Source of the DNA: an uncultured Cellvibrionales bacterium
Lineage (GTDB): Bacteria > Pseudomonadota > Gammaproteobacteria > Pseudomonadales > Cellvibrionaceae
NCBI GenBank assembly: GCA_963933095.1
Contig: CAWVSV010000001.1
Location: 1 to 60,108 of the forward strand
Direction of reading: 5' to 3'
Length of the DNA: 60,108 bases
Shown in pieces: positions 3,496 to 22,500 of this stretch (the first letter of the stretch is position 1; the number at the start of each line of letters is the position of its first letter). The position numbers and the translations under genes are program-made. The notes beneath the pieces are model-generated. The model was not told where the DNA came from. It was given only the letters and a program-made list of their open reading frames with translations, and ran no database searches.

Positions 3496-3538
3496 AATCC
3501 TATAAATTCAAATGGATGTTATTTGTATTTATAGGATT
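3496..3538 (-). terminator. 12-bp perfect hairpin spanning the stop codon of the 131-aa gene (possible terminator)
   Basis: aatcctataaat (3496-3507) is the exact reverse complement of atttataggatt (3527-3538). The 19-nt loop contains the TAA at 3519-3521. On the minus strand the hairpin is followed by TTTAAAT. Confidence 0.45.
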
Positions 3539-3914
3539 GTCGAATATCTTGCACGGGAAGTTGGTGTTGACGGCAAAACTCTAATAGCTGCTGATAAGAT
3601 GTTTCAGCACTTTGACGTGCAGCGCGTCGCAGCTCTACGCAACAGCTACGGTTGTGCGCCAGTGATAATATGTATTGGTGGGCCGTCTTAAGGTGTAGGC
3701 AGGCTTCATATGTTTGGTTGCTGTTTTGATAAAAGTCAGCTAAATTTCGATGGCTGCTAATAAAAGCCGCGACCGCGTCTTGCCTGTCTCTGCAATAGAC
3801 GAGCTGCCTTTCGGCCACCTCAAGTGCTTTGCAATAAAGCCGCTCGGCAGCACGCCACTGGCCACTGAAGTAGAGCTCGTTGGCGCGGCTAATTAATTGT
3901 TTCCATTCGTTCAT
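3519..3914 (-). CDS. Hypothetical small helical (TPR-like) protein with 6 Cys
   Basis: 131-aa ORF. A strong SD (GGGGAG) lies 5 nt upstream of the ATG at 3914. I recognise no family. The sequence looks helical and has six cysteines, including a CC pair. Confidence 0.5.
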   Translation of the reverse strand: MNEWKQLISRANELYFSGQWRAAERLYCKALEVAERQLVYCRDRQDAVAAFISSHRNLADFYQNSNQTYEACLHLKTAHQYILSLAHNRSCCVELRRAARQSAETSYQQLLEFCRQHQLPVQDIRQSYKYK

Positions 3915-3980: not shown

Positions 3981-4461
3981 TTTTTGGGTGATTATAAATC
4001 ATATAGTTGACTTGCGTGTCGGCGGTAGTGCTGAACTATTAAAATACACTGCGACCAAAATTATAAGCTGGCACTGGCAAGTATTTTTGTATGCCTATAA
4101 ACCTACAGCTTTGGGCCTCAACCGAGTGACACCCATGCAGGGGTAAAATGATACTGAGGCTTTACCCTGACACTATGGGTAATGGTCTTAATACAGAGGA
4201 AGGTTAAGATGATACATAGAGACTAAGCATAGAGCTTTAATTGTTAAATATTAAATATGCCGATATTGATGCTAAATAAATAGTTACTTCGATTCTATAG
4301 GGCTTTTTTACGAATCTAGTAATTAATAAGTCGAGGAGAAAGCAGTCTGCATCGGTAAGGTATAGATGTGACAAGAGGCAGAGTGAGGTTTATACCCATA
4401 AATGAGTTGTTAGCATGCTACTTTATAGGCTAATACGTTGTGATTTGAACTGTGCACACAT

Positions 4462-4490
4462 AAAAAAACCGGGCAATGCCCGGTTTTTTT
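4462..4490. terminator. Bidirectional rho-independent terminator downstream of the sortase-substrate operon
   Basis: A7, then ACCGGGC-aat-GCCCGGT (perfect 7-bp stem, 3-nt loop), then T7. It lies 16 nt past the stop at 4506. Confidence 0.85.
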
Positions 4491-4505
4491 ATGTGTGCGT
4501 ATGTC

Positions 4506-5030
4506 TTATGTGCGTTTGCGCATACGGCGAGCAACACCTGCAAAGCCCAGAAGGCCCATGCCTATCAGAGCCATCCAATGCATGCTGCTGGCTGTTTCTG
4601 GCAGCATTGCTTGGTCGCTTGGGTCGGCCAAAACTTCAAAGCGGTCGTGCGGAAGATATACCGAGATATCTGTATTGGGACGAATGTCAGCAAAGTTAAC
4701 ACGCTTTCCATCAACCCAAGCACCGATCTTTGCACTTTTCTTAACATGATGAGTAGGACCGTAGCTGCCGTCGTTTAGTTTGATCTGAGTGCGGTAACGA
4801 CCACTGATTTTGCTGTCGCGAAGTTTCGCATCAACGCGGGTAAACAGCTCGCCATTATATTCAACGACTTCAACACAAGCATCGTTAATTTCAGGGAATT
4901 TTTCAGTAATACTGCTGTTGTAATTTACATCAGCGCAGCTTACAGAAGAGCTAGTAATCTGGGCCGAAGCTGAAGATGCAGCAGCAATAATGCCCGCGGC
5001 GATTAGTGTTTTCATTGTGTTGTTAATCAT
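4506..5030 (-). CDS. Small secreted protein with a C-terminal sortase-type sorting signal (LPETAS + hydrophobic helix + RRMRKRT)
   Basis: 174 aa. SD AAGGA lies 7 nt upstream of the ATG at 5030. The signal peptide is MINNTMKTLIAAGIIAAASSASA. The C-terminus is LPETASSMHWMALIGMGLLGFAGVARRMRKRT (nt 4509-4604). The gene starts 31 nt downstream of the sortase gene. I recognise no family for the roughly 120-aa mature domain. Confidence 0.75.
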   Translation of the reverse strand: MINNTMKTLIAAGIIAAASSASAQITSSSVSCADVNYNSSITEKFPEINDACVEVVEYNGELFTRVDAKLRDSKISGRYRTQIKLNDGSYGPTHHVKKSAKIGAWVDGKRVNFADIRPNTDISVYLPHDRFEVLADPSDQAMLPETASSMHWMALIGMGLLGFAGVARRMRKRT

Positions 5031-5061
5031 AATATCATCCTTAAATCATATGGGGGGTAGT

Positions 5062-5796
5062 TCAACTTTTATCCGTTAGCCGTACCGCCTCAACGATGAA
5101 TCGCTGCGGAGCACTGCCGACAAAATAAAATGGGTAACAAGTCACCAGTACCAGAGTGTGATCATCTCCGCGGAGTATCGCTACATCTGCTGGGGTGACT
5201 ATATGTGTTTTGTTAATTTGGTAGCGGCGGGTCTCAGTCAAGCTTTCTAACTCGATTATATCGCCAATTTTTATGTCTTTAAGCGGTCTAAACCAGCCGT
5301 CTCTGTGACCGGCTATACCGATTCGACCGTTACCGCTGACTGAATCTGTTGACAGAATTCGCGCGGCGCCACGATTAAGATTGTGTTTGTCTGCGCCATC
5401 AAACACCGCTACATCTAAATTGACGCTAGGTATTTTTAGCAAGGCAACAGCACTGTCGCCACCTTTATTGACAGCATTCTTATGGTGGCCGACAAATGCA
5501 CTGGACCAGAGCGACTTGTCGGTTTGTTCAGCTTCAACCTCAAAAGTATTTAGACTTGTGTTAACAAAGCCAGCATCTATTGTGGCATCGATATCGCTCG
5601 CAGTTAGAATAACTTTATTTGCAGCGCTGGGTTGAGCTGTTTTTAGTGCTTGTTTGGCTTGCATAAAATCATCATTTGCCTGACTTTGAGCAAGGCTATT
5701 TTGGCCCATTAATAGGAGATAGGCGGCTAGGATAGAAACCCCTAACAACCAGAAGGCATACTCCATTTTTTTTAGTAACCAATGACTGTCTGGCAC
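5062..5796 (-). CDS. Sortase-family cysteine transpeptidase (membrane anchored)
   Basis: 244 aa with an N-terminal TM helix (YAFWLLGVSILAAYLLLM). The catalytic His context is IGIAGHRDGWF. The catalytic Cys motif is TLVLVTCYPF, followed by a conserved Arg (QRFIV). The start is GTG at 5796 with AAGG upstream; an alternative ATG lies at 5766. Confidence 0.85.
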   Translation of the reverse strand: MPDSHWLLKKMEYAFWLLGVSILAAYLLLMGQNSLAQSQANDDFMQAKQALKTAQPSAANKVILTASDIDATIDAGFVNTSLNTFEVEAEQTDKSLWSSAFVGHHKNAVNKGGDSAVALLKIPSVNLDVAVFDGADKHNLNRGAARILSTDSVSGNGRIGIAGHRDGWFRPLKDIKIGDIIELESLTETRRYQINKTHIVTPADVAILRGDDHTLVLVTCYPFYFVGSAPQRFIVEAVRLTDKS

Positions 5797-5929
5797 GTAT
5801 TAAAACCTTAATATAAAGTACATAAGTTATGTTTTAAACTATAGATAGCTTGCCATTAAAGTGCAAGGTTGAGCTGCTTTAAAGTTAGTAAAAATTTATC
5901 GATTAAATCTCGTCAATAGAGAGTTGATT

Positions 5930-5965
5930 GGTCTAATGTTGAAAGTGGTTTTTCAACATTAGACC
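5930..5965. repeat. Perfect 15-bp inverted repeat (hairpin or operator candidate) upstream of the sortase operon
   Basis: GGTCTAATGTTGAAA (5930-5944), gtggtt, TTTCAACATTAGACC (5951-5965). There is no flanking T-run on either strand. It lies 134 bp upstream of the sortase start. Confidence 0.6.
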
Positions 5966-6411: not shown

Positions 6412-7197
6412 CTATGATTTCGGCAGCATAGCCGTAATAGAAAAACGACCACCCCAGCCCTCGGCACCAGCATCCGGTGCGTCAGCCCAGTAACGTGCAC
6501 CTACAGCAAAACTGACCGGTAATTTACCTATGCGTACAACTTTAGATAGGACTCCATTAATAGGCACACTCCACTCTTCGCTTTCCCAGTCATAAGTACT
6601 TTCGGTTTGCAGAGTGTAGGTCCAGCCACGATTAGTATAGGACACAAAGGGTTGAATAAAGCTGGCATTGATATCGGCCCTGTCATGCTCACCGGCATAA
6701 TCCCAAAGGTGATTGGCGAGCATGCCATAAGTCCATGCATCATCCATTTTTAAAAGCACGGCTGTTGGGCCTGCGGCCCATTTCCCTGTGCCCAAAAGTT
6801 CATTGCTGGCGGTGGGGAATAGTAACGCTGGGCCAGCACCCCATATCCAGCCGTTTGAGGTAGGATCTTTGGGAGAGATGAATATGCTTTGTACGATATC
6901 GCCAGTGCCCGATTGAGAACCGCTGTTGCCGGCAATATTATGCTGTTCTATTAATGGTAAAATAGTACGGGAAATTAAATTCCACTCATCATTGATTTCA
7001 AGTGGGATAACAGGTTGTATATTAACTGCGAGTCGGTGGCCGTCTTTACTGCCAAAACCTGAGTCGTAATTGATTTGAACCGGCATGCTGATCAAATCAG
7101 CTAGCGGGTTGGTTAGCTGTTTGGCTAAGTCGTCTACATCAGAGTAAGCGCTAGTGCTTATTGTGATCAGTAACGTGGTCGCAAGTATATTTTTCAT
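6412..7197 (-). CDS. Outer-membrane beta-barrel protein (MetA-pathway/phenol-degradation-like OMP family)
   Basis: 261 aa. The signal peptide is MKNILATTLLITISTSAYS. The N-terminal plug-like motif LTNPLADLISMPVQINYDSGFG and NIQPVIP are typical of this family as I recall it. Alternating aromatic/hydrophilic strands run to the C-terminus. SD AAGGA precedes the ATG. Confidence 0.55.
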   Translation of the reverse strand: MKNILATTLLITISTSAYSDVDDLAKQLTNPLADLISMPVQINYDSGFGSKDGHRLAVNIQPVIPLEINDEWNLISRTILPLIEQHNIAGNSGSQSGTGDIVQSIFISPKDPTSNGWIWGAGPALLFPTASNELLGTGKWAAGPTAVLLKMDDAWTYGMLANHLWDYAGEHDRADINASFIQPFVSYTNRGWTYTLQTESTYDWESEEWSVPINGVLSKVVRIGKLPVSFAVGARYWADAPDAGAEGWGGRFSITAMLPKS

Positions 7198-7317: not shown

Positions 7318-7872
7318 TTACTTATATCCACCATCAAAACTAGCGGCGGTTAATCCGAGCTGCACTTGTGCCCTATTTATCAGTGGTTGAGGCAGTGCAA
7401 GTAACCCTCGATGAGCCAATTGCTGCTGACTTTGTTCAGAGTATAGGTATTGCAGCAGCGATAGCAAATTGTCGTTATTGTTGTTATCGCTAAAGTTGGT
7501 GTAGAGATACCAAGGGTGAATTATGGTCATTTCGCCGCTACTAATTTTTTTGAAGTTATTGCCAGCACTGTTTTCTGCACTAAATATTGTCATCAATAGT
7601 TTTTCGCCATAGCGCTGGGTCAGCTCGGCAATATTTTCATCGTTCCATTTATCTCGACTTATTGCCACCAGTGCATCGCCATTTAACAAGGCTTGTTGCG
7701 GGTTGCTTACACTAAGTAGCGACAACTTCTCAAAGTCTTGCAGTGTATTTGCCACATCTGCACTGACAGCAATAGATAGATCGGGAACATTGGCCGAGTA
7801 TTCTCGAAGTTGATTACTGCTGCAGGAGCAGATTAAGGTTAAACAGGATAATGCCAATAAGATAGTTTTCAT
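7318..7872 (-). CDS. Lipoprotein resembling half of a PstS/PBP-like-2 substrate-binding domain (last gene of the T1SS operon)
   Basis: The ORF track starts at 7935, overlapping the OmpA-like gene. The ATG at 7872 gives MKTILLALSCLTLICSC, which carries a lipobox, for 184 aa. The C-terminal part (IIHPWYLYTNF...LLQYLYSEQSQQQLAHRGLLALP) resembles the C-terminal lobe of phosphate-binding proteins. Confidence 0.5.
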   Translation of the reverse strand: MKTILLALSCLTLICSCSSNQLREYSANVPDLSIAVSADVANTLQDFEKLSLLSVSNPQQALLNGDALVAISRDKWNDENIAELTQRYGEKLLMTIFSAENSAGNNFKKISSGEMTIIHPWYLYTNFSDNNNNDNLLSLLQYLYSEQSQQQLAHRGLLALPQPLINRAQVQLGLTAASFDGGYK

Positions 7873-7889
7873 AGAATTCTCAGTTTGGT

Positions 7890-8501
7890 CTATTGCGATT
7901 TTTGGAGCAGTTTTTGCGCGCTGTAAATAGACCAACCGGTATTCACTTGGTTTTTACCTTGGTGGTGCAAAACCGCTCTGGTTCGGCGCTGGCGCTGATG
8001 GTTTAGCTCTTGGTTAACAAGTGCTGATTGTTCGGTGTAAATATGCCGATCAATGCGTTGCGATTTAATACTAAGGCGTATTAATTCTGCAGAGATACTG
8101 TTGACTCGGCGCAGTGCCAATGCTTGATTGTACTCGCTTGCCCCCTCGGTACTTGTGTCGCCAATTAATTCGACTCTTACTTCAGGGTACTGACTAAGTA
8201 CGGAAACCAATTCCAAGACGGTGGCGCGTTGGTCATTTCGAATTTCGGAACGATCGAAGTCAAAGTCGATACTGAAAACCTTGTTGTCGTTAACGGTATT
8301 CCATTCGCTGCAGCCTTTAACATCAACCTGAGATTCCAATGGCGTGTTTTTGCAATAATCACGCTGGTTGATAACGCCATCTTTATCTGTGTCAGCTATA
8401 TCGTCAAAGTGGGGGCGATCGACATTGGCATCGGGAATACCAGCGCAAGCACCGAGCAATAACACAGAGGTGCCGAATAACATTTTAAAAATACTTATCA
8501 T
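7890..8501 (-). CDS. OmpA-family peptidoglycan-binding lipoprotein with a thrombospondin type-3 Ca-binding repeat
   Basis: The ATG at 8501-8499 shares one base with the TolC stop codon (TAATG). The lipobox is LLLGAC. The TSP3-like motif is DTDKDGVINQRDYC. The OmpA_C-like region reads FDFDRSEI...VELIGDTSTEGASEYNQALALRRV. An alternative upstream start lies at 8519. Confidence 0.8.
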   Translation of the reverse strand: MISIFKMLFGTSVLLLGACAGIPDANVDRPHFDDIADTDKDGVINQRDYCKNTPLESQVDVKGCSEWNTVNDNKVFSIDFDFDRSEIRNDQRATVLELVSVLSQYPEVRVELIGDTSTEGASEYNQALALRRVNSISAELIRLSIKSQRIDRHIYTEQSALVNQELNHQRQRRTRAVLHHQGKNQVNTGWSIYSAQKLLQKSQ

Positions 8502-9814
8502 TAGTCTTTCTCCTGCCATTGGTTTGGATAATCGACGCGCAGCGAATAGAGTAATGAACCGACGGCGTTATTCACGCGGTAGTTGGCATATTTGTGATCA
8601 TACTTGGCGTTGATATAGTTGCGCCGAGCTAAGAATAGTTCAACTTGGGAGTCGAGAACGTCTAATAAAGTACGGCGGCCGAGGCGGAATTGTTGAATAT
8701 ATCCGGCATTTGCCTCGGTGCTGGCATCGACATTTTCTTTATATAAATTGATTTGCTTGGCGAGAAAGTTTTTTGCATTCCAGGCTAAACGCGTACCCTC
8801 GTCAACTTGTCGGCGTGTGCGTTTGGATATAGCCATGGCCTCATGATATCGCCAGCCAGAGGCTTCTGCTCTGTGTTTGTCACGGCCCCCGTTAAATAAA
8901 TCGTACTCTAGTCGCAGCATGAGTCGAGCGTCTTCATCGGGGCCAGGGAGTCCGCCGACATTGTCATTGTCATTGACGGCAAGTTCTACCGATAGGCGCG
9001 GGTAGTAGCCGTGCTTTGCTGCTCGCTGTTCTTGTTTGGCCGCTGCAATATCGGCGCGCGCGACAAGCAGTTCAGGGTGATGATCTTTTGCTTGCTGCAA
9101 TGCTGCGTTGAGGCTTTCAGGAAGCAGGCGGCTGTCTCCTACAGGATCGATTAAGTCGCGAGCTTCGATGCCCACTTCGCCGATAAACTCGGAGCGAAGA
9201 TCAAATAGGTTATTCTCAGAGGACATTAGCGAGGCCCGAGAACTGGCAAGGCGCGCTCTAACTTGGGCAAAGTCGGACTGACTCGACAGACCTTTTTCGG
9301 TGCGTTCGCGAATATCCTCAAAAGCCTTAATATGATCACGCACATTTTGTTGTGCTAGATTCGACGTTTGTTCCGCCTTAAGTAAGTTCAGATAAATACG
9401 ACATACCCTAAGGGCGGTATTTTCGGCACTGCTAATCAGTGCAAAGCGCTCTGATGCAGCTTCTTGGCCTAGGCGTTCGACATCCGCTTGAGTTTTAAAG
9501 CCATTAAACAACAGCTGAGATACCGTTAAACCCAACTCTTGACGGTCGAGCTCGATTTGATCAAAGTCTTGACCAGAGTTGTAGTCAGTACGCTCGCGAC
9601 CATAGCCGCCGCTAACTTTTACTTGAGGGTAATAATCGCCACGCGCACTACGTTGTAAACTGTTAGCAGTTTGATAGCGTGCGTATTGTTGTAGTACGTC
9701 GGGGTTACTATCCATAGCTGTGGCTACAGCTTCTTCTAGCGTCATAGCTTGGGCGCTGCCAGCGGTTCCAAGTGCTGCCAGTGATAGGCTCGCTGCAAAA
9801 AATAATCGTCGCAT
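8501..9814 (-). CDS. TolC-family type I secretion outer-membrane duct (LapE/AggA-like)
   Basis: 437 aa. The signal peptide is MRRLFFAASLSLAALGTAGSAQA, followed by the typical TolC N-terminus (TLEEAVATAMDSNPDVL). The protein has two-repeat coiled-coil/barrel organisation. It sits in the T1SS operon. Confidence 0.9.
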   Translation of the reverse strand: MRRLFFAASLSLAALGTAGSAQAMTLEEAVATAMDSNPDVLQQYARYQTANSLQRSARGDYYPQVKVSGGYGRERTDYNSGQDFDQIELDRQELGLTVSQLLFNGFKTQADVERLGQEAASERFALISSAENTALRVCRIYLNLLKAEQTSNLAQQNVRDHIKAFEDIRERTEKGLSSQSDFAQVRARLASSRASLMSSENNLFDLRSEFIGEVGIEARDLIDPVGDSRLLPESLNAALQQAKDHHPELLVARADIAAAKQEQRAAKHGYYPRLSVELAVNDNDNVGGLPGPDEDARLMLRLEYDLFNGGRDKHRAEASGWRYHEAMAISKRTRRQVDEGTRLAWNAKNFLAKQINLYKENVDASTEANAGYIQQFRLGRRTLLDVLDSQVELFLARRNYINAKYDHKYANYRVNNAVGSLLYSLRVDYPNQWQEKD

Positions 9815-9888
9815 TTAATATCGTTCCAATCGAGTCATTTAGTTAATGTGGTTTGACTTACGTTTGAGGCAAATCTATTTGGGTCTTT

Positions 9889-11208
9889 TTAGGGCTCCCG
9901 CATCGCGGTAGCTCTGGCCCGTAATAGTGGTTTAAGCCAGTAATTTAATACGGTTTTCTTGCCGGTTAAAATGTCTACGCCCGCCTGCATTCCTGGAATG
10001 ATGGGCATGCGGTGTAAACTTGCGTCATGAGTTTTAATGTGGACTTCGTAAAACGTCACGCCTTCTGGGTCTTGCTGGGCATCGGCACTGACATAAATGA
10101 CTTCGCCTTTTAAACCACCGTAAATCACAAAGTCATAGGCGGTGAATTTTACCGTAGCTTCTAATCCTTCGCGAACAAAAGCAATGTCCTGCGGGGCTAT
10201 GCGAGTTTCAACAATAAGCTGGTCATCAATGGGCACTATTTCCATTAGCGCTTCGCCAGGTTTAATAACACCGCCAACCGAACGGGTGGCGATATTTTTA
10301 ACTTTACCGAGTATCGGTGAGCTCAGCTGGGTACGGCGTAGCTGATCTTTTAATTGTGCATGGCGTTCGGCCAGTTGGGCCAGCTGACTATCGGTTTCGG
10401 CGAGTTGAGCTTGGGCCTTGGAGCGAAAATCACGTGCGGTATTGCTGTACTCGGCGATGGCCTGTTCACGTGCTGCCAGCAGCCGTTGAGTGGCAATACG
10501 TGATGCGGCAAGCTCGCCTTTGAGGCTACTTTGTTCGCGCTGTAATTGTAGTAGCTCAACTCGCGCGACCGCGCCATTTGCTACAACCAAGCGTGTTAGC
10601 TCAACTTCTTCGTCTACTAAGAGCAGATTGTGCGACAGTGTCTGGCTGCTATTACGGCTCTCCCCAAGTGACTGCACTTGTTGTTCTACCTGCTGGCGAG
10701 TTTGCTCTAGTTGAGCCATTAATTGCTCGATACGTGCGAGGTAGCTAGCGCGGGCATTGGCGAGTGCCGCCGGTGATATATCTTTATTACTGAGTACTTG
10801 TTCTTCAATGCTAATGCGTGCGCGCCAGTCACTCTGGCTTTTGTCGATGATAATGGTGGCGAGTTCTGCGATTAGGCGAGCGCGCCTAGCATACAGCGAA
10901 GTCTGTTCTTGCTCAGCTTCTTGATAGGTTGAGCGAAAACGCGTGTCGTCCAGTTTGGCTAGCTCTGCTCCGGCCTTGACTATTTCACCCTCATGTACCT
11001 GCATTAGCTGCAGAATACCGCCCTCAAGGCTCTGAATTTTTTGTACCGCATGGGCTGGCACAACTTTTCCTTCGCCCACGACAACTTCATCTAATTGTGC
11101 CAGCGAGGCCCAGATAAAAGTGAGCACAATTAAACCGCAGACCAGCCAAACCACTGAGCGTGCTTGGTAGGCGCGTTCGAGTTGCTGCCAGTACAGCCGA
11201 CTACTCAT
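9889..11208 (-). CDS. HlyD-family type I secretion membrane-fusion protein (LapC-like)
   Basis: 439 aa with one N-terminal TM helix and a long Q/A/E/L-rich coiled coil. The C-terminal barrel motif is typical of T1SS adaptors (PGMQAGVDILTGKKTVLNYWLKPL). Its ATG overlaps the ABC transporter stop (ATGA, 11205-11208). Confidence 0.9.
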   Translation of the reverse strand: MSSRLYWQQLERAYQARSVVWLVCGLIVLTFIWASLAQLDEVVVGEGKVVPAHAVQKIQSLEGGILQLMQVHEGEIVKAGAELAKLDDTRFRSTYQEAEQEQTSLYARRARLIAELATIIIDKSQSDWRARISIEEQVLSNKDISPAALANARASYLARIEQLMAQLEQTRQQVEQQVQSLGESRNSSQTLSHNLLLVDEEVELTRLVVANGAVARVELLQLQREQSSLKGELAASRIATQRLLAAREQAIAEYSNTARDFRSKAQAQLAETDSQLAQLAERHAQLKDQLRRTQLSSPILGKVKNIATRSVGGVIKPGEALMEIVPIDDQLIVETRIAPQDIAFVREGLEATVKFTAYDFVIYGGLKGEVIYVSADAQQDPEGVTFYEVHIKTHDASLHRMPIIPGMQAGVDILTGKKTVLNYWLKPLLRARATAMREP

Positions 11209-13463
11209 GGCTGCACCTTGTTATCGGTGAACTCAGGACTGTCATCAGTTTGTTTAGAGGTGTCCTTCCGGGTAACGGTGACAGAGCGCACACGATGCTT
11301 ATTATTTCTCGGGCTGGGATCATCGCTTGGGCCGCTCAAGTTATTTGACTGCTGTTGCGCCATTATCTGTGCGGTTGGCCCGTCGGCTATAACACGACCT
11401 TTTTCCAGTACAATGACGCGGCTGCATAGCTGCAATAATTTGGGTTTGTGGCTAGCGATAATCATGCCGCAGCTTTGAGGTTGTTGTCGCAGGCCTGCCA
11501 GCACTTGGTTTTCAAGTGTGCGGTCCATAGCGCTGGTGGGCTCATCCAATAGTAGCAGAGCTGGCTGGCGTACAAGTGCTCGCGCCAGTGCGACTGACTG
11601 GCGCTGACCACCCGATAAGCAGCGGCCCAGTTCGCCCACTTGAGTCTCCAGTCCGCTGTCGAGACGATCAGCAAATAGAGCAATGCCCGAGGCCTCAATG
11701 ACTTGAGCTAGTAGTGTTTTGTCGAGTTGCGTGGCACCGAAGGCAATATTGTCCAGAACCGAGCCAAACAGCAGTTGAGGCTGTTGGCCAACCCAGCCGC
11801 ATTGTTGGCGCAGAGCATTGACTGGCCATTGTTGCGCTTCGATACCATCAAAATAGATTGCGCCGCCACTACTACGGTATTGATAGGCGAGGAGAGCCAG
11901 TAGGGTGCTTTTCCCAGCGCCGGCGCTGCCGATTAGGCCCACGCGTTCACCAGGTTTAATTTTTACCGAGATATCTTCGAGTACCGCGGATTCTTTATCG
12001 GGGTAATTAAATATTACATTGCGCAGTTCTATAGCGCCGCTGAATTCCTTCTGTTCCATGGCTTGGGCGGGGTGCTGTTCCTGAGGGGTTTGCATCACGG
12101 TTTCTAGTCCAGCAATAGCTGTGCGGGTCTGCTCATAGCGTACTAAGAGCATCGATAGCTGATTGACAGCAGAGGCGGCGCGCCCAGACAACATGACAAT
12201 AGCGATCAAGCCGCCCATTGATAATAGCCCTTCTGAGATTCGGTACACGCCGCTGGTAATTAAGCCGATGGTAACAAAATGCTGAGCGTTCATTACCGTG
12301 TAGGAGAGCGTATTAGAATAGTCTCGGCCCTTCGTCTGCCAGTCGGACAGCGCGGCTACTGTCTGCTCCCAGCGCTGTTGCGATTGTCCTTCGGCGTTGT
12401 TTTGCTTGGTGTCTTCTAACAACTGCAGTTGCTCGAACAGTATCGCTTGGCGCTGAGTCGACAGCCGAGAGCTCTCCTCAATGGTGCCCTTGAGCTTTTT
12501 TTGCACCAGCCAAGATAAACCGATCAGTGACATGATGGCTATTATCGGCACCAAAACCATGGGGCCACCAAGCCAAAAGATCAGCAGTAAAAAAAGCCCA
12601 GTAAAGGGCAGGTCTATGGCGGTGTTAAGTGTGGCGGAGGTAAGAAAGTCTCGCACACTGTCGAATTCTTGAATTTGTTTGGCGAAGGCTCCCGAGGACT
12701 GGGGCCGATTTTCCAAGGTCATACCCAGTACTTTTGAGTAGAGGATGGACGAAATCTTGACGTCTATCTGTCGCCCAGCCATATCGGTCAGGCGTGACCG
12801 AGCCTTGCGTAGCAGCCAGTCGAACACTATGGCAATGGCAACCCCAGAGGACAGTACCCACAAGGTGTCGAAGGCCTGATTGGGCACGACGCGGTCGTAT
12901 ACATTCATGGTGAATAGCGGTACGGCCAGTGCCACTATATTTATTACCAATGAGGCGATCAACAGGTCACGATACCAAGGCTTGGCTTCGATAATGGCCT
13001 GCAATAGCCAGTGCTTCTGTTTGCTGGGCGCCAGATTTTCTGAGCGGGGATCAGTGACTTTGCTCGGGGCTAACCACCACAGTGGTGCCATGATAGCGTG
13101 TTCGAAAAGATCGCGGCTCAGTTGGCACTCACTCATGTTTGCACTGGCTTGTAAAAAGGTAACATTATTGGCGGTAAGTGCGGTCACAATAACCGGTTCA
13201 GCGGCCGAGTTTTCGTCACTGCCAGGCAGATGTATCTGAGCTAGAGCCGGTAGGGTGTCGGGTTTGAGTGCTGTGACGCAGGCACGATGACTGTCAAAGC
13301 CCGCTTGAGAGGCAGCTCGAGCGAAAATGTTGGCATCCAAGCAGCCGCCAACAAGCGGCAGCCCCGCCAGCAGTTGCTGGGGATGGCGCCGCAGTCCGTA
13401 GTGCTGACTGAACCAATAGAGGCTGGAGAGCCAAGGATCATTTTTAAGTAAGGCCTTATCCAT
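11205..13463 (-). CDS. Type I secretion ABC transporter (permease/ATPase) with an N-terminal C39-like domain (LapB-like)
   Basis: 752 aa. The N-terminal ~130 aa look like a C39 peptidase-like domain, and I see no Cys in a catalytic-Cys context. A six-TM block follows. Walker A is GSAGAGKST, the signature is LSGGQRQ, and Walker B is LLLLDEPTS. A roughly 55-aa low-complexity C-terminal tail follows. Confidence 0.9.
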   Translation of the reverse strand: MDKALLKNDPWLSSLYWFSQHYGLRRHPQQLLAGLPLVGGCLDANIFARAASQAGFDSHRACVTALKPDTLPALAQIHLPGSDENSAAEPVIVTALTANNVTFLQASANMSECQLSRDLFEHAIMAPLWWLAPSKVTDPRSENLAPSKQKHWLLQAIIEAKPWYRDLLIASLVINIVALAVPLFTMNVYDRVVPNQAFDTLWVLSSGVAIAIVFDWLLRKARSRLTDMAGRQIDVKISSILYSKVLGMTLENRPQSSGAFAKQIQEFDSVRDFLTSATLNTAIDLPFTGLFLLLIFWLGGPMVLVPIIAIMSLIGLSWLVQKKLKGTIEESSRLSTQRQAILFEQLQLLEDTKQNNAEGQSQQRWEQTVAALSDWQTKGRDYSNTLSYTVMNAQHFVTIGLITSGVYRISEGLLSMGGLIAIVMLSGRAASAVNQLSMLLVRYEQTRTAIAGLETVMQTPQEQHPAQAMEQKEFSGAIELRNVIFNYPDKESAVLEDISVKIKPGERVGLIGSAGAGKSTLLALLAYQYRSSGGAIYFDGIEAQQWPVNALRQQCGWVGQQPQLLFGSVLDNIAFGATQLDKTLLAQVIEASGIALFADRLDSGLETQVGELGRCLSGGQRQSVALARALVRQPALLLLDEPTSAMDRTLENQVLAGLRQQPQSCGMIIASHKPKLLQLCSRVIVLEKGRVIADGPTAQIMAQQQSNNLSGPSDDPSPRNNKHRVRSVTVTRKDTSKQTDDSPEFTDNKVQP

Positions 13464-13506
13464 TAAAGCCGCAGTTCCTTTGTCTAATATTAAATATCAC
13501 TGTGAC

Positions 13507-16500
13507 TTATCCGGTCACAAGCAGGTTGTTGTTGATCAGTTGTTGCAAGAAATCGCTTTCGTCACTGTAGTTGGCGACAAGGTCTGACATATTTAGCCCC
13601 TCTAATGTTATTTTTTGAGTGTTTCCAATAGCGCCATCTGGACGAATACTGAACTCGGTGTTAGCGCCATTGTCGGTGACATCGATTACTGTCGAGGCTG
13701 TGGTGCCATTAGTAATACTCAACCCCGCGAGTAACCCGGTAAGATCGAGAGCATCGCTTTCTGTGTCGCTATAGCTGCCTCCGCTGGAGTTGAAATCGAT
13801 AACCGTATCTTTTGCCGGAAATAGGATGTTGCCCTGATCGCCGGCGCTCCAAGTGAAGGTGTCGGCTAAGGTACCGCCTTCATAGCGGTCGTCACCCTCG
13901 GTGCCCACCAGTGTGTTTTCTCCTGCGGCTTGAATTTTTATGTCCATGTTGATACTTGTACCGGTAACGCTGTCGTCATTCAGTGTTGAGCGACCCTCTA
14001 AGGTTAGGCTGAAATCTTTAGTGTTCGTGGCTGTTAGCAGCTCTAAGTTGGGTATATCGGCCTCTGACACAACCCATCGGCCGCCCTCACGGGCGCCAAA
14101 ATTGAAATTAAATCCGCTGGGTAGGCCATGAATGACCAGCTCGTGAATCTCATCGGGGTGGCTGTTGGTGTTTGAAATGTCCAACGATAGATCCATAGGA
14201 ATACTGAGACCATCACTGGATATCAAACCGTCGAAGCGTGATACCACCATGCCTGCATCTGGCAGCGGGGCAATATCTACACTAAGTAGGACAATCTCAG
14301 GGGTAGAGATATTATCGGTTATGGTCCCTAGCACGGTATTGCTGTCGTAACTGGATATGGCGATTTGCAAATCTAGTTGGCCCCAAGCCAGATTACCAGT
14401 TAACAAGTCGAAGCTGGCAAGCGTTGCCGCATTAGTTATCACCGCGGCCGTATATGTGCCGTCGCCATTGTCTTTAAAGCGGCTCTGTACTCCATCGGCG
14501 ATGATACGGTTGAGTTTTTCAAGTGCAGTGCTATCGGAGCTTGCCAGTGCGGTAACAGTGATTTCGACGGTTTCGTTGGGGTTGGCTACTTCCTGTGTTT
14601 CAGCGTCTAGATTGATAGTAATAGCACTGCCTTCATCGCCACTGGCGCTGGGGTCAGCGTTTAATATTTGAATGCCGTCGGCTATGGGGTATACGGCCAC
14701 AATAAAATCGGCCGTAGTGGTGACAAAGTCAGCCGTGCCTTTTTCATTGGTGATGGCCTTCAGTGTGAGCTTCAAATCACCAGAAAAATCCTCCGGTGGC
14801 TGAATTTGCAGGGAGTCTATTTGGGCTTGAGTGACAGTAAAACTGTAAGTGGCGGCGCCGCTTAAATCACCGTCTAAGACACTGCCGCCGTCTGGGCCGT
14901 TATCAGGTAATGCTTCGCCGCCGGCAAACATGATGGCCCCCTCAGGTACGCCGCTAATTTGTACGCTAATGGTCTCTGATCCGTCTTGATCTATTAAATT
15001 GGCGCAGAAACCGCTTTCGAAACTAATTAAAGAGTCTTCATCTCCTGTGGAATCAACGACGCACAATTCGGCAGAGTCAGTGATTGGCTCTAATTCGAAG
15101 TCCAAGACTACGTTTTTCACTGCAGTCGCTAGATTACTTTGCGTGCTGCCGCCAGTAGTAATATCGGTAATAGTGATCGCGGCGTCTAAGCTAACGCTGC
15201 CATCGACATGCTGGGGCGGGCGAAAGAATACCAATGCCAGTTTACTGGGGTCGCTAAGCGTGAAGGTTCCGGTGGGCGCTTCAACTAGGTGGCCAAAGGG
15301 GTCAAAAAGTGTGGCGCCACCTAAGTTGCTAAAAACCAGCTGAGTAATGGTCTCGACGCCGCGTGTTGGCTCTGTATCAGCATCACCTAGTGCCAAGTCG
15401 AAGGTTAAATTAAATAACTGATCTTCTTGGCCTATGTTCGAGTCGATTGACAGTAACGGGTCCACGACAGGAAGAACATCAATACTCATCGTTTGATTTT
15501 TAGTAATAGTGTCGCCACTAGGGTCAGTGGCAATAACCATTATGGGCAGGCTGATGTCGCCAGCGAAATCTTGGTCGTCGCGTTGGTGTATTTTGAGGTT
15601 TGTCAGTGCGCTTTCATCGAAAACCCAAGCTATAACTGAAGTGCCATCTAGGGCGTAGTGAACTTGCATGCCTGTGCCGCTGAGCCAGGCGCCTGCAATA
15701 CCGGCGCTGGATAAATCGGCTGGGGTAACACGAAAGCTTATTTGATCAGTCCCAGAGTCATCGCCGATATTACGCAACCCTATATTAATATGCTCACTGA
15801 GCGTGATCACTTCATCTTCATCGCCATCAGCAATACTGGCTTCTAAAGTGTTAGGGTCGAATGCTATTGTCATAGCGCCTGGATCAGAGAAAGCCACGTT
15901 GATTTCGGCGGTAATCACATCGGCATCGTCGACAGGGGCGTTATCAGTGCCGTCAAGAACTCTGGCTTCTACTTCCAAAATACCGGTGAATACGTTGCGG
16001 CTGTGAATTAAAATATTGTCGAACAAGCTTAGGTTTTGTTCCATTAGCGTAGCGGAAGTACTGGGGGCAGGCAGCAACCAGTTGCCATAGCCGTCATGCA
16101 GCACTTGGCGGCCGTCGGTAGATTCTACAAACCAACTGAGGGCGTCGGGCATTTTGAGTAACACGTAATCGAGTCTTTCCGAGCCATCCATATCCGCCTC
16201 GAAAAAGCCCACTTGCCCAGTTAGGTCTATGGGATTGCCGCCACTGCTATTAAGTGTGGCTGTTGACGTCTCGATTCGCGTGTCATCTTCAGTGGTAGGC
16301 TCATTTTGTTCAACTCTAGCGACGACATTAATATCGACTTTACCGTTGAATGTTTTTACGTTATCGGGGCTTAAACTGCCGTTAGTGTCGGTTACTTCAT
16401 AACTGATATCGAAGCTGAAGAAACCGTGCTGGTCGACGGGTGCTTGAAAAGTGATGCGGTCGCTGGTGAGCAGAGCCGTTAAGTCACCGCCAGCCAGAGT

Positions 16501-19500
16501 GCTTAATTTTAAGCCGCTAGCGGGCACTAATAATTCGCTGCCATCTAGGTACAAAACGCCACTAAAACCCGGCAGAATAGTGAGTTCGGTAATACTTTCA
16601 CTGCCGTCCAGATCACCCCGCGTTGGCATTAAATTGATCGGTTTGGCTTGGTCTTCAATACCGTTAGCGCCCAAACTCTGATTGTCTTTAGTGTCAATAA
16701 TGGGGGCGACATTAAAGTCAATACGCAAGTCGAATTCAGCGCGATCACCGTCGGGTTCGGTGTTTATTTGGACCAGTGTTAGCTCTACTGCGCCACTAAA
16801 GTCTTGTGGTGGCTGAAACAGTAAGTCGGCTAGTTGAGCTTGTGTGACCGAATAGACGGGGTTGTTGGCGGCGCTGGCATCAAACACGGGTAAATATATT
16901 TCACTGCCAGCGTTGTTGAAAAACTCGCTGCCTGCAGGAACACCGGATAACAGCAAACTGACTGCTTCGGAGCCATCATCATCTTCAGTGCCTGCGGTAA
17001 AATCGAGCGCGATCAGACTGTCTTCGTCGAAGTCGACGTTGGCGACAATATGCCCAGGGTTATCCGCAACATAAGTCCAGTTGTTATTTCCCCCTGGGCC
17101 TATGTCTGGATCATCGGCTACGCCTTTTAATTTGATGGTGAAGCTTTTGCTGGGGCTGAAGGCTTCTTCTAAGCCTGCGGTTGGGGCAACACCGCTTTCT
17201 GTCGCTTCCACCGATATTGCTCGCACGCTAATGCTAGGCACTTCTGTTGTTTCGCTGAGGTCTTCTTTTGGGTTAAAGGTGGCACCTGCGAGGATGTCAG
17301 CCTCGGACACACGATAAACACCGCCGCCTTCATCGATGACTTGAGCATTTTCAATAGCCCAGCCTGAGGGTAGAGTAATTTCAAACCACAGAGTTTCGGA
17401 GCCGTCGAGGTCAGCCAATAGTCCTTCAATGGCATTTTTAATTTCGATAGGGACATCTTCGGTACCGTGAATATTACGCACCAGCAAGCTTGGCATATCC
17501 GCCTCGCCGGATACCTCTACAGTGAAAATTTGCGGGATTTCCGCAGTATCTTTGTTTTCAGTTTCGGTCGATATAGCGACGGCAGTGAAGTTAAAGCTGC
17601 CGGAGAGATTGGCATTGACACTAACCTGCAGACCAGCAAATTGGCTGGTGGTCAGAACAGTGCCATCTAATATGGTCTGATCACCGTTTGTTAGGGCTAT
17701 GCCCGCGTTAATGTTTTCGATCCGATAGCTCAGTGTCTCGGAGGTATCGGTGTCAAAGAGCGTGGCTTCGGTGGGGGTCAGCGCTTCGTTTGAAGCGTCT
17801 TCTTGAATATTAAAGGTATAGATGCCGGCAGCATCCCATTGCGGCGCGTCCGCCACAGAGTTTACTTTGATGTTAAATGTGTCGTCGACATCGTAAGGGC
17901 CGGTAAAAGAGCCAACCGTCATGGTGATATCCAACTGGACGTTCACGGTCTGGTTAGATGAGTTTAGCGCCGGGGTGAATATTAAATCGCCATTAGCGGT
18001 CATCTCGCCGGGCACACCGCTGCCAGTTAACTTCAGTAGGCTATTGGGGTCACCGTTGATATATTCCAAGAAGGGGTTGCCGTTGCTGTCGAGAGGCAGA
18101 TCTATTAAACCCAGTACCGGATGGTTTAAGGTCAGGCTGGCGCCGAATAGTTGAACGTTATCAAACGTGAAAAGCTGTATTTCTTCGCCGTTATCAATAT
18201 CGCCTGCGTTTCCGGTGAGAGCAACGGTGAAAGGAATATCTTCATCGGTTGTTCTCGGTGTCACATAAATTGAGCCAATCGAGTCTTTGACGTCAAAATT
18301 AAAGCGTACGTTTTTGATGGTGTCATTGTCCAAGTCCACCATGTCAAACAGTAGATGATCGGAAAAATCGGTATCCAACAAGTTAAATACTCGATCGGTG
18401 ACAAAGGTATAGTTGCCGTTGCTTTGTAAAGAGAGAGTGCCATAGTTCAGCAATGTACCTTCGCTGAGAGTGATATCGATCGAACCACCGTCAGGTATAG
18501 CGTAATCTGTCGACTTGTAATTGACTGAGATAATACGGCCGCTGTCTTCGCCAAAATTACCGTCAGTGATTAGGTTGTTACCGCTGAGTAAATTGCCGCT
18601 ATTGGTGCTGTATTCTTCAATGACTAATGTATTATTTGAATCGTAAATAGGCTCTAGTGGCACATCATCGGTTATGTCGATTAGCCATTGAACAGTATTG
18701 GAATCATCGCTGTCAGCATCGCTCGCGTAAACGGAGAAATCGAGTTGTTTGATGTTGGTGTCGATGCTAGCGGCGGGATCCGGGTGGGTAATCGATTCGA
18801 ATAACTCAAAATTAAAGTTGCCGGTAGTGTCGGCGGTAATTTCAAAGACTTTGATGGCGCCAGCCATGCCAGTCCAGAGAAAATCGCTGGATTGGCTTAG
18901 GGTAACAGCAACCCCTTCGCTGGTAGTGAGTCCGGTAGTATTAAGTGCAAGGTTAATGGCGGTTAGTTCGTCACTGCCTTTAGCACCAAATATTTTGCCA
19001 CTTGCGAAGCTAGTGCCAGTGGCTAAATCTGCTTCATTAACACTAAGTGCGGCGGGGGTATAAAGCACAAAGTCGTGTCCATCATCAATATTTAGACTAA
19101 CGGTAGCAGTCGACGCGGTGCCGTCTGAATCAATAAAATTTAGCGCCAGATCAATAGCGGCGGTGTCGGTAATGTTGGTGATGTGGTCGATGGGACCAAG
19201 AATATCTAGCTCAACCTTGATACTAGTGCTGCCGCCAGCACTGACATTAATACTATCGGGGACGGTTACAGTGAACATGGCGCCGCCGCCTGCCTTGGAG
19301 CCACTGCTCGAATTCAGCACAGCGTCTAAGGTGCCATCGCCGTTACTACGCCATAATAGCGCTACGCCGTTACTGGTTATAAAGTTGCCGCTGGTGTCTT
19401 TTACAGCGCTGCCGTCGACGACACCGTATTGCAGCGAAACGATTTTATCGCCGCCAGCGGTAATCGATATTACGCCTTCATCGTGTTCGCTTAAGTTGCT

Positions 19501-22500
19501 GTCGTCTTTGTTAGGAATTTCAGTGGCAGCAAGCGACAGGGGTGTTACTACTGGCGCCATTTGGTCGTTAACCACAATGTTCAACGTACTGGTCGCGGTA
19601 TCGCCATCAGAATCCGTAAATGTCACTGCGAACGGCAGGGCTAGCTCGGCGTTGTCACTGCCCGCAGTATTGGGCTGATCTAGCGCTCGAGTTAATATTA
19701 CAGTGTAAGAAATGTCGACGCTGGAGGGGTATGGGGGCGCACTATTATGGCTGGGTACAGAGTCGAGTACTACCTGAATCACTTCGCCTTCGGAGCTTGA
19801 ACCGGTGAGTGTTAGGCCATCGGCTGAAATCGTGTAGCTAAGCGTTTCGCCGTTACTGGTAAAGCTTGGCTGACCGCTGGCCTCATTAAACATGATTGCA
19901 TTGAGATAATCCGAGCCGAGTATTACTCTCAGTGTGCCGACTTGCTCTGTGGGGCTTAAATCATCTTCATCGAGTGCCACCTGACTAGTGGTTATGGCGT
20001 TAAGCAACTGACCGTCATTAAAATCGACCTCTACAGTCGCTGGGGCAATAGTTGTGCCATCAGAGTCTGTGGCGGTGACTAAATATACCGGCTTGAGTTG
20101 ATCGCCTGAGCCGTTGTCGTGATCTAATGGGCGATACCAAGTGGTGGTGCCGGTAACGTCTAGATCTTGGCCATTAGTATTTTGATTGTCGCTGATCACA
20201 GTAATAAAAACGTTATCGCCGTTATTAGTCATTGCGGTAATTGTTTTATTGTCGGCGCTGATTGCGTAGCTAAGTGCCTCACCATCACTCGTTAAATTTA
20301 GCGCTGCTAGTAAGCCGATTGTTTCCTGCAGGAATGTTGCCGAGTTTTCGGCTAGATTGTCCGACCCTGCTTCAATGCGGACGGTAGTGGCGGTGGTGCC
20401 CGGCAGGTTGCTAAGTAACTGTTCACTGGTGTTAAGGGCGATGTCGCCTAAGTAGCCTTCATCACCATCGGATATATTAAGCACAACGTCGGCAAAATCT
20501 TCATCACCATCGGCATCTTCGGCAACATAGGTAAACTCAAAGGTTGGGTTATTGCCGGAATGATCTTGATTGCGGGCGGCCGAGAAACTCCAACTGCCAT
20601 CTTGATTGACCGAGAGGGTGCCTTTAGAGGCGTCGATAATAACGGCGGGGCTGCCAAAGGCAACGCTGTATATGGTGCCAAGGTAATCAATGGTTTTTAT
20701 TTCTAAGGGGCCTTCAAGCCGATTGTCATTGTCGAACAGATTTCCAGTGGCATCTCTGTCTTCGGTGACCTGATAGCTATCATCTTCGGCAAATGTTAAA
20801 CCGTCACGCACAATAAAATTCAGGCGCGCTTCGACTACCTCGGCGCTGGTATCCGCAGATACATCGTTTTGTATCGCTTGTATCAGTATGCCGCTGCCGA
20901 TGCTTGCGGTGTTGCCAGCCTGTTCGATACTGCCATAAAGCGTCAGGGTAACGCTGGTGCTGGTGTCCTCAATAACACCCTCAATCACTACAAAACCATC
21001 GATATTGCGAATCAGCTGAATAGTTTTTCCATCGCCAGAAACACTAACGGTGGTGGTAATGTCTGAATTGACGCCATCGCTCGATGTAAGTTTGTCAAAA
21101 GCAGTTTGGCGGCTACTCTCACTAAAAATAAAAGGCGCGGTGTTAATTGCCGAGTCACCACCAATATCGATGCGCAGTTGCGATACTTCGCTATCGGGAG
21201 CGACGGTCAGTGCGCTTTCTGAAAGTATGATTCCAGAGGGGATATCTAATGTGGGGGTGTCGTCGACTGCGGAGTTGCCTGCTTGGTCGCTAACCTCGGC
21301 GTTGAACGTCCAGGCTAATAATGGATTTAGTCCCGAGGGAGCAATCGATGAGGTGGCCCACTCACCACTACTGTCTACGCTGGCTGTGGTTTGAAATTCA
21401 TTGCTGCCATCGGCAAACGTGAGCGTAACAACCTGATTTTCTTCTGCATCAGTTGTGCCACGGAAAATAGTTGGAGTACCAAATTTGATTTTTTCGATGT
21501 CAAGACCGTTGAGGCCGGTATCAATATCGATGTCTAAGACGACATCTTTGAGGGCGTAATTAATAGCATTAGCGGGGTTGTCCGAGGCGTCAGTTACCTC
21601 TGCGCTGACGGATAGAGAGCCGTCATTAAAGGCACTAAGATCGTAACTTGTCGGGGTCTCGTTAAGGCTGCTGTAACTGCCATCAGCTTGTACACTGGCA
21701 GTGAAATTGATGTCTGCAGCACCGCCGCCAGAAATGGTAAGGTTAACCGTTTGACCTGCTTCAACGTCAGTGGTGACACCGCTTATGGACACCTCGGCTA
21801 GCTCACTAACAGAGAGCTTGCCATCGCCATCGAATACTACGGTTATTGCCGCTAAAGTGTCTTTATGGATCACATCGGTGCCGATGGCGGTATTGCCCGC
21901 CACATCGGCGCCGGTAATAGTTACCTCTAAATCTCCATCGTTGAGGCTGGATATGTCGACGCCGTTGAGCGCGGTAATCCACTCTCCAGCGCTGGTATTA
22001 ATGCCACTGCCGGTGGCATTAACGACCGTGGTATTGACAATGACATCAGGATTTATGCCATCGGAAATGGTCACCAGTAACGGCTGGCCGTTTTCTATAT
22101 TGTCGGTGGTGCCCTGCAGTGTAATAGCCGAAGCCACCTCGGCGGCATTAAAAAGTTGATCTTGATCGCCGTCTTGATTGTCAAAGGCGCTGTCACTAAT
22201 GATAGCGATCGGGTCGTAAGCAATGGTCGCACTGGCGCTGGCGGGGTTGCCAGCTTTATCGGTAACATTAATAGTTAGAAATAATGTCTCGCCGCTGGCG
22301 GCTGACAGGTCTATGTCGTTAGCGACCCATAAGCCGCCGCTTTGCACCTGACCAATAGCCTGAATGCTTGTGCTGCCATCGCTGACGCTAATATAAACCG
22401 GCTGGCCGACTTCAATGTCGGTTACCACGCCACGCAGGCTGGCATGCATCGCTTCCAGATAGTTATAAATACTGTCGCTATTGGGGTCGACAAACTCGGC

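Follow-up and report, generated by a model that had tools for sequence, protein, structure and literature searches.

The question raised by this locus is what a sortase does, together with a single small substrate, in a Gram-negative cell, and to what that substrate would be attached. The locus is a two-gene cassette in contig CAWVSV010000001.1, a stretch of 60,108 nucleotides (nt) from an uncultured Cellvibrionales bacterium that is referred to here, at its full length, as the window. An earlier note on this DNA had described two co-directional genes, 31 nt apart and closed by a strong terminator, the upstream one encoding a sortase with a transmembrane (TM) anchor, a GHRD histidine and an LVTC cysteine, and the downstream one a signal-peptide protein whose last 32 residues are LPETAS, a hydrophobic helix and RRMRKRT, a description that our analysis bears out. 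We propose, with a confidence somewhat above even, that a small β-barrel domain with a disulfide bond is joined to the periplasmic peptidoglycan by a class-D-like sortase dedicated to it, a reading in which we infer the acceptor, the cleavage and the location. The features on which the argument depends are as follows.

5062..5796, minus strand: sortase gene, 244 amino acids (aa), GTG start
5305-5307, minus strand: catalytic His164, within IAGHRDG
5137-5139, minus strand: catalytic Cys220, within LVTCYPF
5101-5103, minus strand: catalytic Arg232, completing the His-Cys-Arg triad
4506..5030, minus strand: substrate gene, 174 aa
4962..5030, minus strand: substrate signal peptide, aa 1-23, MINNTMKTLIAAGIIAAASSASA followed by Q, of the signal peptidase I type, without lipobox, ending ASA before the Q
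4605..4961, minus strand: mature domain, aa 24-142, with Cys32 and Cys52
4509..4604, minus strand: sorting signal, aa 143-174, consisting of LPETAS, 19 hydrophobic residues and RRMRKRT, with LPETA at nt 4590-4604

The upstream gene encodes a genuine sortase, as its Pfam score, invariant triad and fold match indicate. Its product matches the Pfam Sortase model PF04203 above the cut-off (E 3.1e-22, 79.1 bits against 26.6) and scores 81.4 against a cut-off of 39.35 with TIGR01076 (sortase); its N-terminal TM segment is YAFWLLGVSILAAYLLLMG, and an alignment of 16 homologues shows no variation at His164, Cys220 or Arg232, which lie within the blocks AGHRDGFFRPLKD and LVTCYPFYFVGSAPQRFIV. In the AlphaFold2 model, a long helix that includes the TM segment (residues ~3-54) is followed by a disordered linker (~60-90) and then a β-barrel (116-239); a Foldseek search with this model returned Clostridium perfringens SrtD (4D70) as the top match (E 5e-12), with many class C and class A sortases ranked below it. 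By sequence, the best solved-structure match is 2LN7 (E 2e-19), which we take to be the class D sortase of Bacillus anthracis. Among the models of individual sortase classes, the NCBIfam SrtD model NF058671 scores best (116.1 bits against a cut-off of 140) and the NCBIfam class_D model NF033746 second best (106.9 against 165), followed by the marine or class GN model TIGR03784 (87.2 against 158.25), the class C model (74 against 160) and the class E model (50 against 160). The two class D models also score highest in five other clade members, the cut-off being reached by the enzyme of locus L082 alone (142 against 140), and RefSeq labels the relative from Gilvimarinus agarilyticus a 'class D sortase'. 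Judged by these sequence comparisons, the enzyme is nearest to class D, yet outside every curated sortase class.

The downstream gene encodes a protein whose C-terminus is recognized by the LPXTG_anchor model TIGR01167 (24.9 bits against a cut-off of 15.9, residues 143-173), with a predicted cleavage site between Thr146 and Ala147. When all six frames of the window were scanned, only one open reading frame (ORF) carried such a tail, and this uniqueness, together with conservation across the family described below, indicates that the tail is not a product of chance. PEP-CTERM and other sorting tags were rejected as readings of it: PEP-CTERM, which the earlier note had weighed as an exosortase-type alternative, GlyGly-CTERM and MYXO-CTERM gave no NCBIfam match for the substrate at E<=0.01, and the motif is LPETA. 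The signal peptide was read from the sequence, and hydrophobic N-termini align throughout the substrate family; two invariant cysteines and a signal peptide mark the protein as extracytoplasmic. The AlphaFold2 model has a predicted local distance difference test score above 90 over residues 30-130, and in it the mature domain consists of two short helices, a seven-strand small β-barrel and a short linker. Compared with the Protein Data Bank (PDB) by Foldseek, the domain model has no significant neighbor, the best match being to OB/Mop-like small barrels at E 0.23, and a sequence-profile search of the PDB with the mature domain returned nothing.

Sortase and substrate recur together in many genomes. 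A one-genome-per-species collection was scanned with the sortase alignment as query, and 589 of the 600 pattern-matching stretches listed were confirmed as encoding sortase relatives, making at least 589 in total. The earlier note's remark that sortases are rare in Proteobacteria does not hold for this clade, whose stretches come mostly from Acidobacteriota and Gammaproteobacteria and whose homologues are found in named Gilvimarinus and Granulicella species. The best 80 of these at least 589 loci were kept (~63 from Acidobacteriota and 15 from Gammaproteobacteria or other Proteobacteria), the highest identity to the window sortase among them being 53%; the species of the window itself is not represented in this set. 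The substrate-family profile matches an ORF in 67 of the 80; of these ORFs, 58 lie no more than 100 nt downstream, on the strand of the sortase, 4 are in frame with it and 5 are within 1.6 kb. Gammaproteobacterial substrates match the family profile end to end (E 1e-40 to 1e-55); acidobacterial substrates, at ~260-280 aa, align with the β-core at profile positions 64-118, and a second, longer C-terminal match overlaps the β-core and reaches their LPKT[AG]S tail.

The pairing is also seen when the search begins from the substrate. A 7-sequence substrate alignment scanned against metagenomes gave three loci, and in the substrate-first loci L001 and L002 (TARA contigs) and L090, L091 and L092 (metagenomes) a sortase lies directly upstream; sortase homologues led to L005-L009, Gilvimarinus among them, and in these a small protein lies directly downstream of the sortase. 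The sole substrate-first exception is L003, where the 296 nt that precede a 56%-identical substrate (L003:297-848) encode no sortase. As to whether homologues of the 174-aa protein always adjoin a sortase, a check the earlier note had suggested, they nearly always do, and its notion of a sortase dedicated to one small substrate in a Gram-negative bacterium is supported by the conserved pair and the genuine sorting signal.

Several loci depart from the simple pair. In four Acidobacteriota metagenome-assembled genomes a single ORF of 489-552 aa comprises both sortase and substrate, with the substrate signal peptide kept internally; either the two genes are truly fused or read through, or the long-read assembly introduced an indel.

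L034:4773-6365: in-frame sortase-substrate ORF
L036:4914-6536: in-frame sortase-substrate ORF
L052:4884-6542: in-frame sortase-substrate ORF
L061:4857-6326: in-frame sortase-substrate ORF

In three further Acidobacteriota loci (L022, L033 and L065) the sortase homologue has no adjacent substrate and is flanked by a ~530-aa protein, Ser/Thr-kinase-like by sequence alone, and a ~430-aa multi-pass membrane protein, an arrangement that may be a different sub-system. L004 carries a 60%-identical sortase (L004:799-1560) followed by a GNAT acetyltransferase gene instead of a substrate gene, and its sequencing run has an accession number near that of L003.

When 1.84 billion representatives were searched exhaustively with a profile, the substrate family came to 283 clusters at E<=1e-3, of which 56 pass E<=1e-10, clusters being defined at 50% identity, and nearly all members are 150-230 aa long. 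A word-indexed search with the window substrate found only four close clusters, all of them metagenomic (three from ENA, one from Logan), and the contigs bearing one of these four belong to a TARA marine assembly. The family is recognized by a signal peptide, a Cys-x19-Cys pair and a β-barrel with a ...DG..V...DL..G..V.VY.P.DR... core, all of which the window protein has. RefSeq calls the Gilvimarinus members 'hypothetical protein', and no consistent domain match emerged when the window protein and 18 relatives were compared with Pfam and NCBIfam at lenient E-values. The earlier note's view of the small target as a two-cysteine protein that could not be assigned to a family is therefore upheld as regards the cysteines and the lack of a Pfam or NCBIfam model, and set aside as regards its being an orphan, given the 283 clusters.

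The most sharply conserved part of the family is its tail. In an alignment of 60 sequences, M1, C32, C52, P144 and T146 are invariant and A147 nearly so. The C-terminus of 110 of the 150 top representatives reads [LM]-P-x-T-A-[SG]-x-[LVWM]-P followed by a TM helix and basic residues, Ala occupying P1' in 108 of these 110 tails (LPETAS in the window), and the motif that the earlier note had singled out is thus conserved as [LM]PxTA[SG]. The remaining 40 are otherwise arranged and include tail-less, TM-only-tail and OmpA-fused forms. This distribution bears on the idea that the tail is a mere C-terminal membrane anchor, the sortase being inactive or acting elsewhere and the adjacency historical. 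Six members (P0203, P0230, P0234, P0240, P0264 and P0273) do have a TM-plus-basic tail without LPxT, and the pair appears unlinked in the one lineage of L003 and L004; against this, the motif Pro and Thr are invariant and Ala is kept at P1' in tails that are otherwise very divergent, the catalytic triad is invariant, and adjacency has been maintained across two phyla, so that we regard a mere anchor as highly improbable.

The OmpA-fused members give the clearest indication of where the domain belongs. In P0225, P0238 and P0261 the Cys-x19-Cys domain is intact and an OmpA-like peptidoglycan-binding domain replaces the sorting signal (Pfam OmpA E-values of 2.6e-17 for P0225 and 1e-20 for P0238; the cluster of P0261 is named 'OmpA-like peptidoglycan-associated protein' by JGI). 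P0238 also has a lipoprotein lipobox, giving a Pal-like architecture. The OmpA-fused members indicate that the domain is also held at peptidoglycan non-covalently, and the repeated swap of an OmpA-like domain for the sorting signal suggests that the domain is meant to sit at the sacculus, which favors meso-diaminopimelate (mDAP) as the acceptor. Gram-negative peptidoglycan is typically of the diaminopimelate (DAP) type, a further reason for favoring mDAP.

That the host is diderm follows from the Gram-negative-type genes of the window, which encodes parC_Gneg (ParC), HslU, PriA, PBP1a, PilM and an RND pump, as well as a TolC-like OEP, HlyD, an ABC transporter of type I secretion and an OmpA-like protein. 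Its ParC, on which the taxonomic placement depends, is 78-79% identical to those of Cellvibrio, Aestuariicella, Pseudomaricurvus and Simiduia; identity rises to 97-99% with proteins encoded on metagenome contigs, and Tara figures among the sources given for the closest of these. The host is accordingly placed as a marine gammaproteobacterium allied to Cellvibrionales.

The mechanism that we favor, peptidoglycan anchoring by the dedicated sortase, would proceed as follows. The 174-aa precursor would be exported by Sec, its signal peptide being removed after ASA23, and anchored in the inner membrane through its hydrophobic C-terminal stretch, with RRMRKRT as the stop-transfer tail. The membrane-anchored sortase, its periplasmic catalytic domain borne on a long flexible linker, would cut LPETAS between Thr146 and Ala147 and form a thioacyl intermediate at Cys220. 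An amine nucleophile would resolve this intermediate, the likeliest being the free ε-amino group of mDAP, whether in lipid II or in the stem peptides of peptidoglycan, and the ~120-residue β-barrel would end up as a periplasmic domain whose C-terminus is joined covalently to the sacculus. Since the sequence shows no evident signal for translocation across the outer membrane, the product is expected in the periplasm rather than at the cell surface. The anchored domain may serve at the peptidoglycan as a binding or structural module.

Several observations weigh against this mechanism. The sortase scores below the trusted cut-off of every class model, so the transfer of class D chemistry to the window enzyme is an extrapolation. 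In some family members the tail is TM-only or missing altogether, which implies that the function of the domain does not strictly depend on covalent anchoring, and the pair may be unlinked in the lineage of L003 and L004. The fold offers no functional clue, its best PDB match being the small barrels at E 0.23 mentioned above, and the linker between domain and LPETA is only ~15 residues in the window protein, which makes the attachment geometry hard to picture. Besides, the products of Gram-negative sortases are uncharacterized, their roles being called unknown or not well characterized (bioRxiv 10.1101/2023.05.05.539549; PMC8225981).

A rival reading has an acceptor other than peptidoglycan, whereby the sortase would cut the tail and pass the domain to water, as a regulated soluble release, or to another envelope amine, such as a Lys of an outer-membrane protein or lipoprotein or an amine of a lipid or polysaccharide. 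Tail-less soluble members (P0148, P0161, P0175, P0209 and P0232) indicate that the free domain is viable, and sortases hydrolyze their substrates when a nucleophile is absent. The acceptor of Gram-negative sortases, moreover, is undemonstrated in the same two sources (bioRxiv 10.1101/2023.05.05.539549; PMC8225981). The OmpA-fused members, however, point specifically to peptidoglycan, a class-D-like enzyme and an LPxTA motif fit the known DAP-directed reaction, and a dedicated transpeptidase would be a costly means of merely cutting a membrane anchor, so that we consider release or transfer elsewhere unlikely, although worth serious attention.

A minimal pilus or fiber, in which the sortase would polymerize the small protein head to tail via Lys in the style of class C, would account for a single substrate adjoining its own sortase, as in pilus islands, for the presence of class C sortases among the top structural matches and for the tandem copies of the core module held by acidobacterial substrates. 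A conserved Lys was sought in the 60-sequence substrate alignment and none was found, which argues against pilin-type polymerization; in addition, the class C model scores below the class D models, and no export route for a fiber across the outer membrane is seen from the sequence. We give polymerization very little credence.

Peptidoglycan anchoring by a class-D-like enzyme can be set beside four kinds of known system. The class D sortases (B. anthracis SrtC/SrtD with BasH/BasI, Bacillus subtilis YhcS with YhcR, and C. perfringens SrtD) resemble the window system in the best class models, in the structures 2LN7 and 4D70, in the LPxTA[SG] motif with Ala at P1' and in having few substrates, encoded nearby; a DAP acceptor is available in Gram-negative peptidoglycan too. 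The known class D acceptor is the DAP cross-bridge, attachment through Thr having been shown for B. anthracis SrtC (PMC8225981). The window system differs in that its enzyme lies below the class D cut-offs, its host is diderm and its product would be periplasmic, not surface-exposed, it has no sporulation link and its substrate belongs to an unrelated small β-barrel family; moreover, class D is a group of Bacilli and Clostridia, whereas the window clade is one of Acidobacteriota and Gammaproteobacteria.

The marine or class GN (Pds) system combines a TIGR03784 sortase, a TIGR03788 target with VIT and vWA domains, PdsO (TIGR03789) and an adjacent two-component system, as in Shewanella SO2192-SO2196. 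It too occurs in Gram-negative bacteria and pairs a single sortase with a neighboring LPXTG-type target to which the enzyme is dedicated, but the window sortase scores well below the TIGR03784 cut-off and the window target, at 174 aa, has neither VIT nor vWA. TIGR03788 does not match the window substrate, for which TIGR01167 is the sole NCBIfam match, and neither PdsO nor a two-component system adjoins the cassette; the OmpA-like ORF at 7890..8519 scores 36.4 bits with the pdsO model, below its cut-off of 152.2. A Pds system was accordingly rejected on HMM (hidden Markov model) scores and missing partners, in agreement with the earlier note, which had set the locus apart from the marine VIT/vWA type.

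The dedicated systems described by Haft (rhombosortase with GlyGly-CTERM and exosortase with PEP-CTERM; PMC3237569) share the tripartite tail of motif, TM helix and basic cluster, and their sorting signal likewise acts as a suffix that is lost or replaced in some family members. The window enzyme, in contrast, is a true sortase, that is, a cysteine transpeptidase, not a rhomboid protease or exosortase, and its motif is LPxTA, not GG or PEP. The links made by L,D-transpeptidases, of which Braun's lipoprotein (Lpp) of Escherichia coli is the example, resemble the proposed product in that a small envelope protein is joined by its C-terminus to mDAP; the L,D-transpeptidase joins a Lys ε-amine, whereas the sortase would transfer a Thr carboxyl from a thioacyl intermediate, and the window substrate, unlike Lpp, has no lipobox and so no lipid bridge to the outer membrane.

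The layout of the cassette is that of a self-contained transcription unit, whose elements are the following.

5031..5061, minus strand: intergenic spacer of 31 nt, with a Shine-Dalgarno-like AAGGA 8 nt ahead of the substrate ATG
4454..4498, both strands: intrinsic terminator hairpin, bidirectional, core CCGGGC-AAT-GCCCGG with A7/T7 flanks, closing the operon
5838..5866, minus strand: promoter-like block TTGCAC-17 nt-TATAGT, which precedes the sortase GTG by 42-70 nt

No terminator was found in the spacer, and sortase and substrate genes are thus expected to be co-transcribed; the closing hairpin lies 8-50 nt past the substrate stop codon. The promoter-like block is kept in contig L090, whose sortase is ~85% identical and whose flanking sequence diverges, and it is probably the cassette promoter; it was missed by a consensus scan because its -35 hexamer, TTGCAC, fits the consensus at 3 of 6 positions. 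A perfect 15-bp inverted repeat (GGTCTAATGTTGAAA / TTTCAACATTAGACC, 6-nt spacer) lies at 5930-5965 and precedes the sortase start by ~135 nt. It occurs once in the window and is absent from L090, and as an operator it was set aside for this lack of conservation. Horizontal transfer was also considered on the basis of composition and gave no signal, the cassette GC (45-47%) and the GC at third codon positions being inside the range of neighboring genes.

Beyond the cassette lie genes that the earlier note had taken, with it, for a cell-surface island.

6412..7197, minus strand: signal-peptide protein of 261 aa
6195..6234: bidirectional terminator of the 6412..7197 gene
7318..7935, minus strand: ORF of 205 aa in the type I secretion locus, overlapping the OmpA-like ORF by 46 nt
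7890..8519, minus strand: OmpA-like protein, type I secretion locus
8501..9814, minus strand: TolC-like OEP, type I secretion locus
9889..11208, minus strand: HlyD, type I secretion locus
11205..13463, minus strand: ABC transporter, type I secretion locus
13507..23820, minus strand: giant protein of 3437 aa, type I secretion locus

The 261-aa protein, whose only match is a very weak one to Phenol_MetA_deg (E 0.24), is probably an outer-membrane β-barrel. The type I secretion locus as a whole spans 7318..23820 on the minus strand, and the 46-nt overlap suggests that the TTG start of its 205-aa ORF may be miscalled. On the other side, at 3519-3914 on the minus strand, lies a gene for a small DUF2753/TPR-like protein, with amidohydrolase and YscW-META lipoprotein genes downstream; these three are syntenic with TARA contig L001 and absent from the other cassette loci.

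Proximity to the outer-membrane-protein-like gene and to the type I secretion locus with its 3437-aa protein would suit a cassette that functions within this surface island, for instance by anchoring or retaining the secreted adhesin. ORFs of 18 proteobacterial loci and the window, 19 loci in all, were clustered all against all, and the sortase and substrate genes alone are conserved neighbors; the other recurring clusters are antisense shadow ORFs inside the sortase gene and generic ABC-transporter similarity. Gilvimarinus cassettes have different neighbors (AhpC/AhpF, glyoxalase, DUF3465 and DUF748), the outer-membrane-protein-like gene has its own terminator and the cassette its own promoter-like block, and the adhesin has no sortase tail. 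The lack of synteny largely refutes a role in the island, which we hold to be barely credible, and the earlier note's 'cell-surface island' was rejected. With no other conserved neighbor and with its own terminator and promoter-like block, the cassette is an autonomous two-gene unit, and its position beside the adhesin operon is coincidental.

One sortase with one adjacent substrate has been known in Gram-negative bacteria since Pallen 2001 and Comfort & Clubb 2004, as these are cited in PMC8225981 and PMC3237569, and such pairs were formalized as a 'dedicated system' by Haft (PMC3237569). Full-text literature searches for this cassette found no published description. Within the literature and libraries searched, four aspects appear to be new, namely a class-D-like enzyme clade that spans Acidobacteriota and Gammaproteobacteria, a substrate family without a Pfam or NCBIfam model, the sharply conserved LPxTA[SG]xLP signature of this family and the alternative-anchor architectures among its members. 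Taken more broadly, a diderm sortase clade that ties one β-barrel protein per cassette to mDAP would be a third, sortase-based route for joining protein to peptidoglycan and the first assigned role of a Gram-negative sortase, a generalization that we advance tentatively and rate at somewhat less than even.

With its two genes, a single enzyme and a cargo of ~120 residues, this cassette may offer the simplest handle on the role of sortases in Gram-negative bacteria. A link between Thr and mDAP, if true, would establish a new class of covalently wall-bound periplasmic proteins in the diderm envelope, define a new domain family and provide a DAP-directed, LPxTA-specific Gram-negative sortase for protein engineering; an acceptor other than peptidoglycan would be at least equally informative. 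In either case, the system is compact and widespread, and it bears on sortase function in diderm bacteria.

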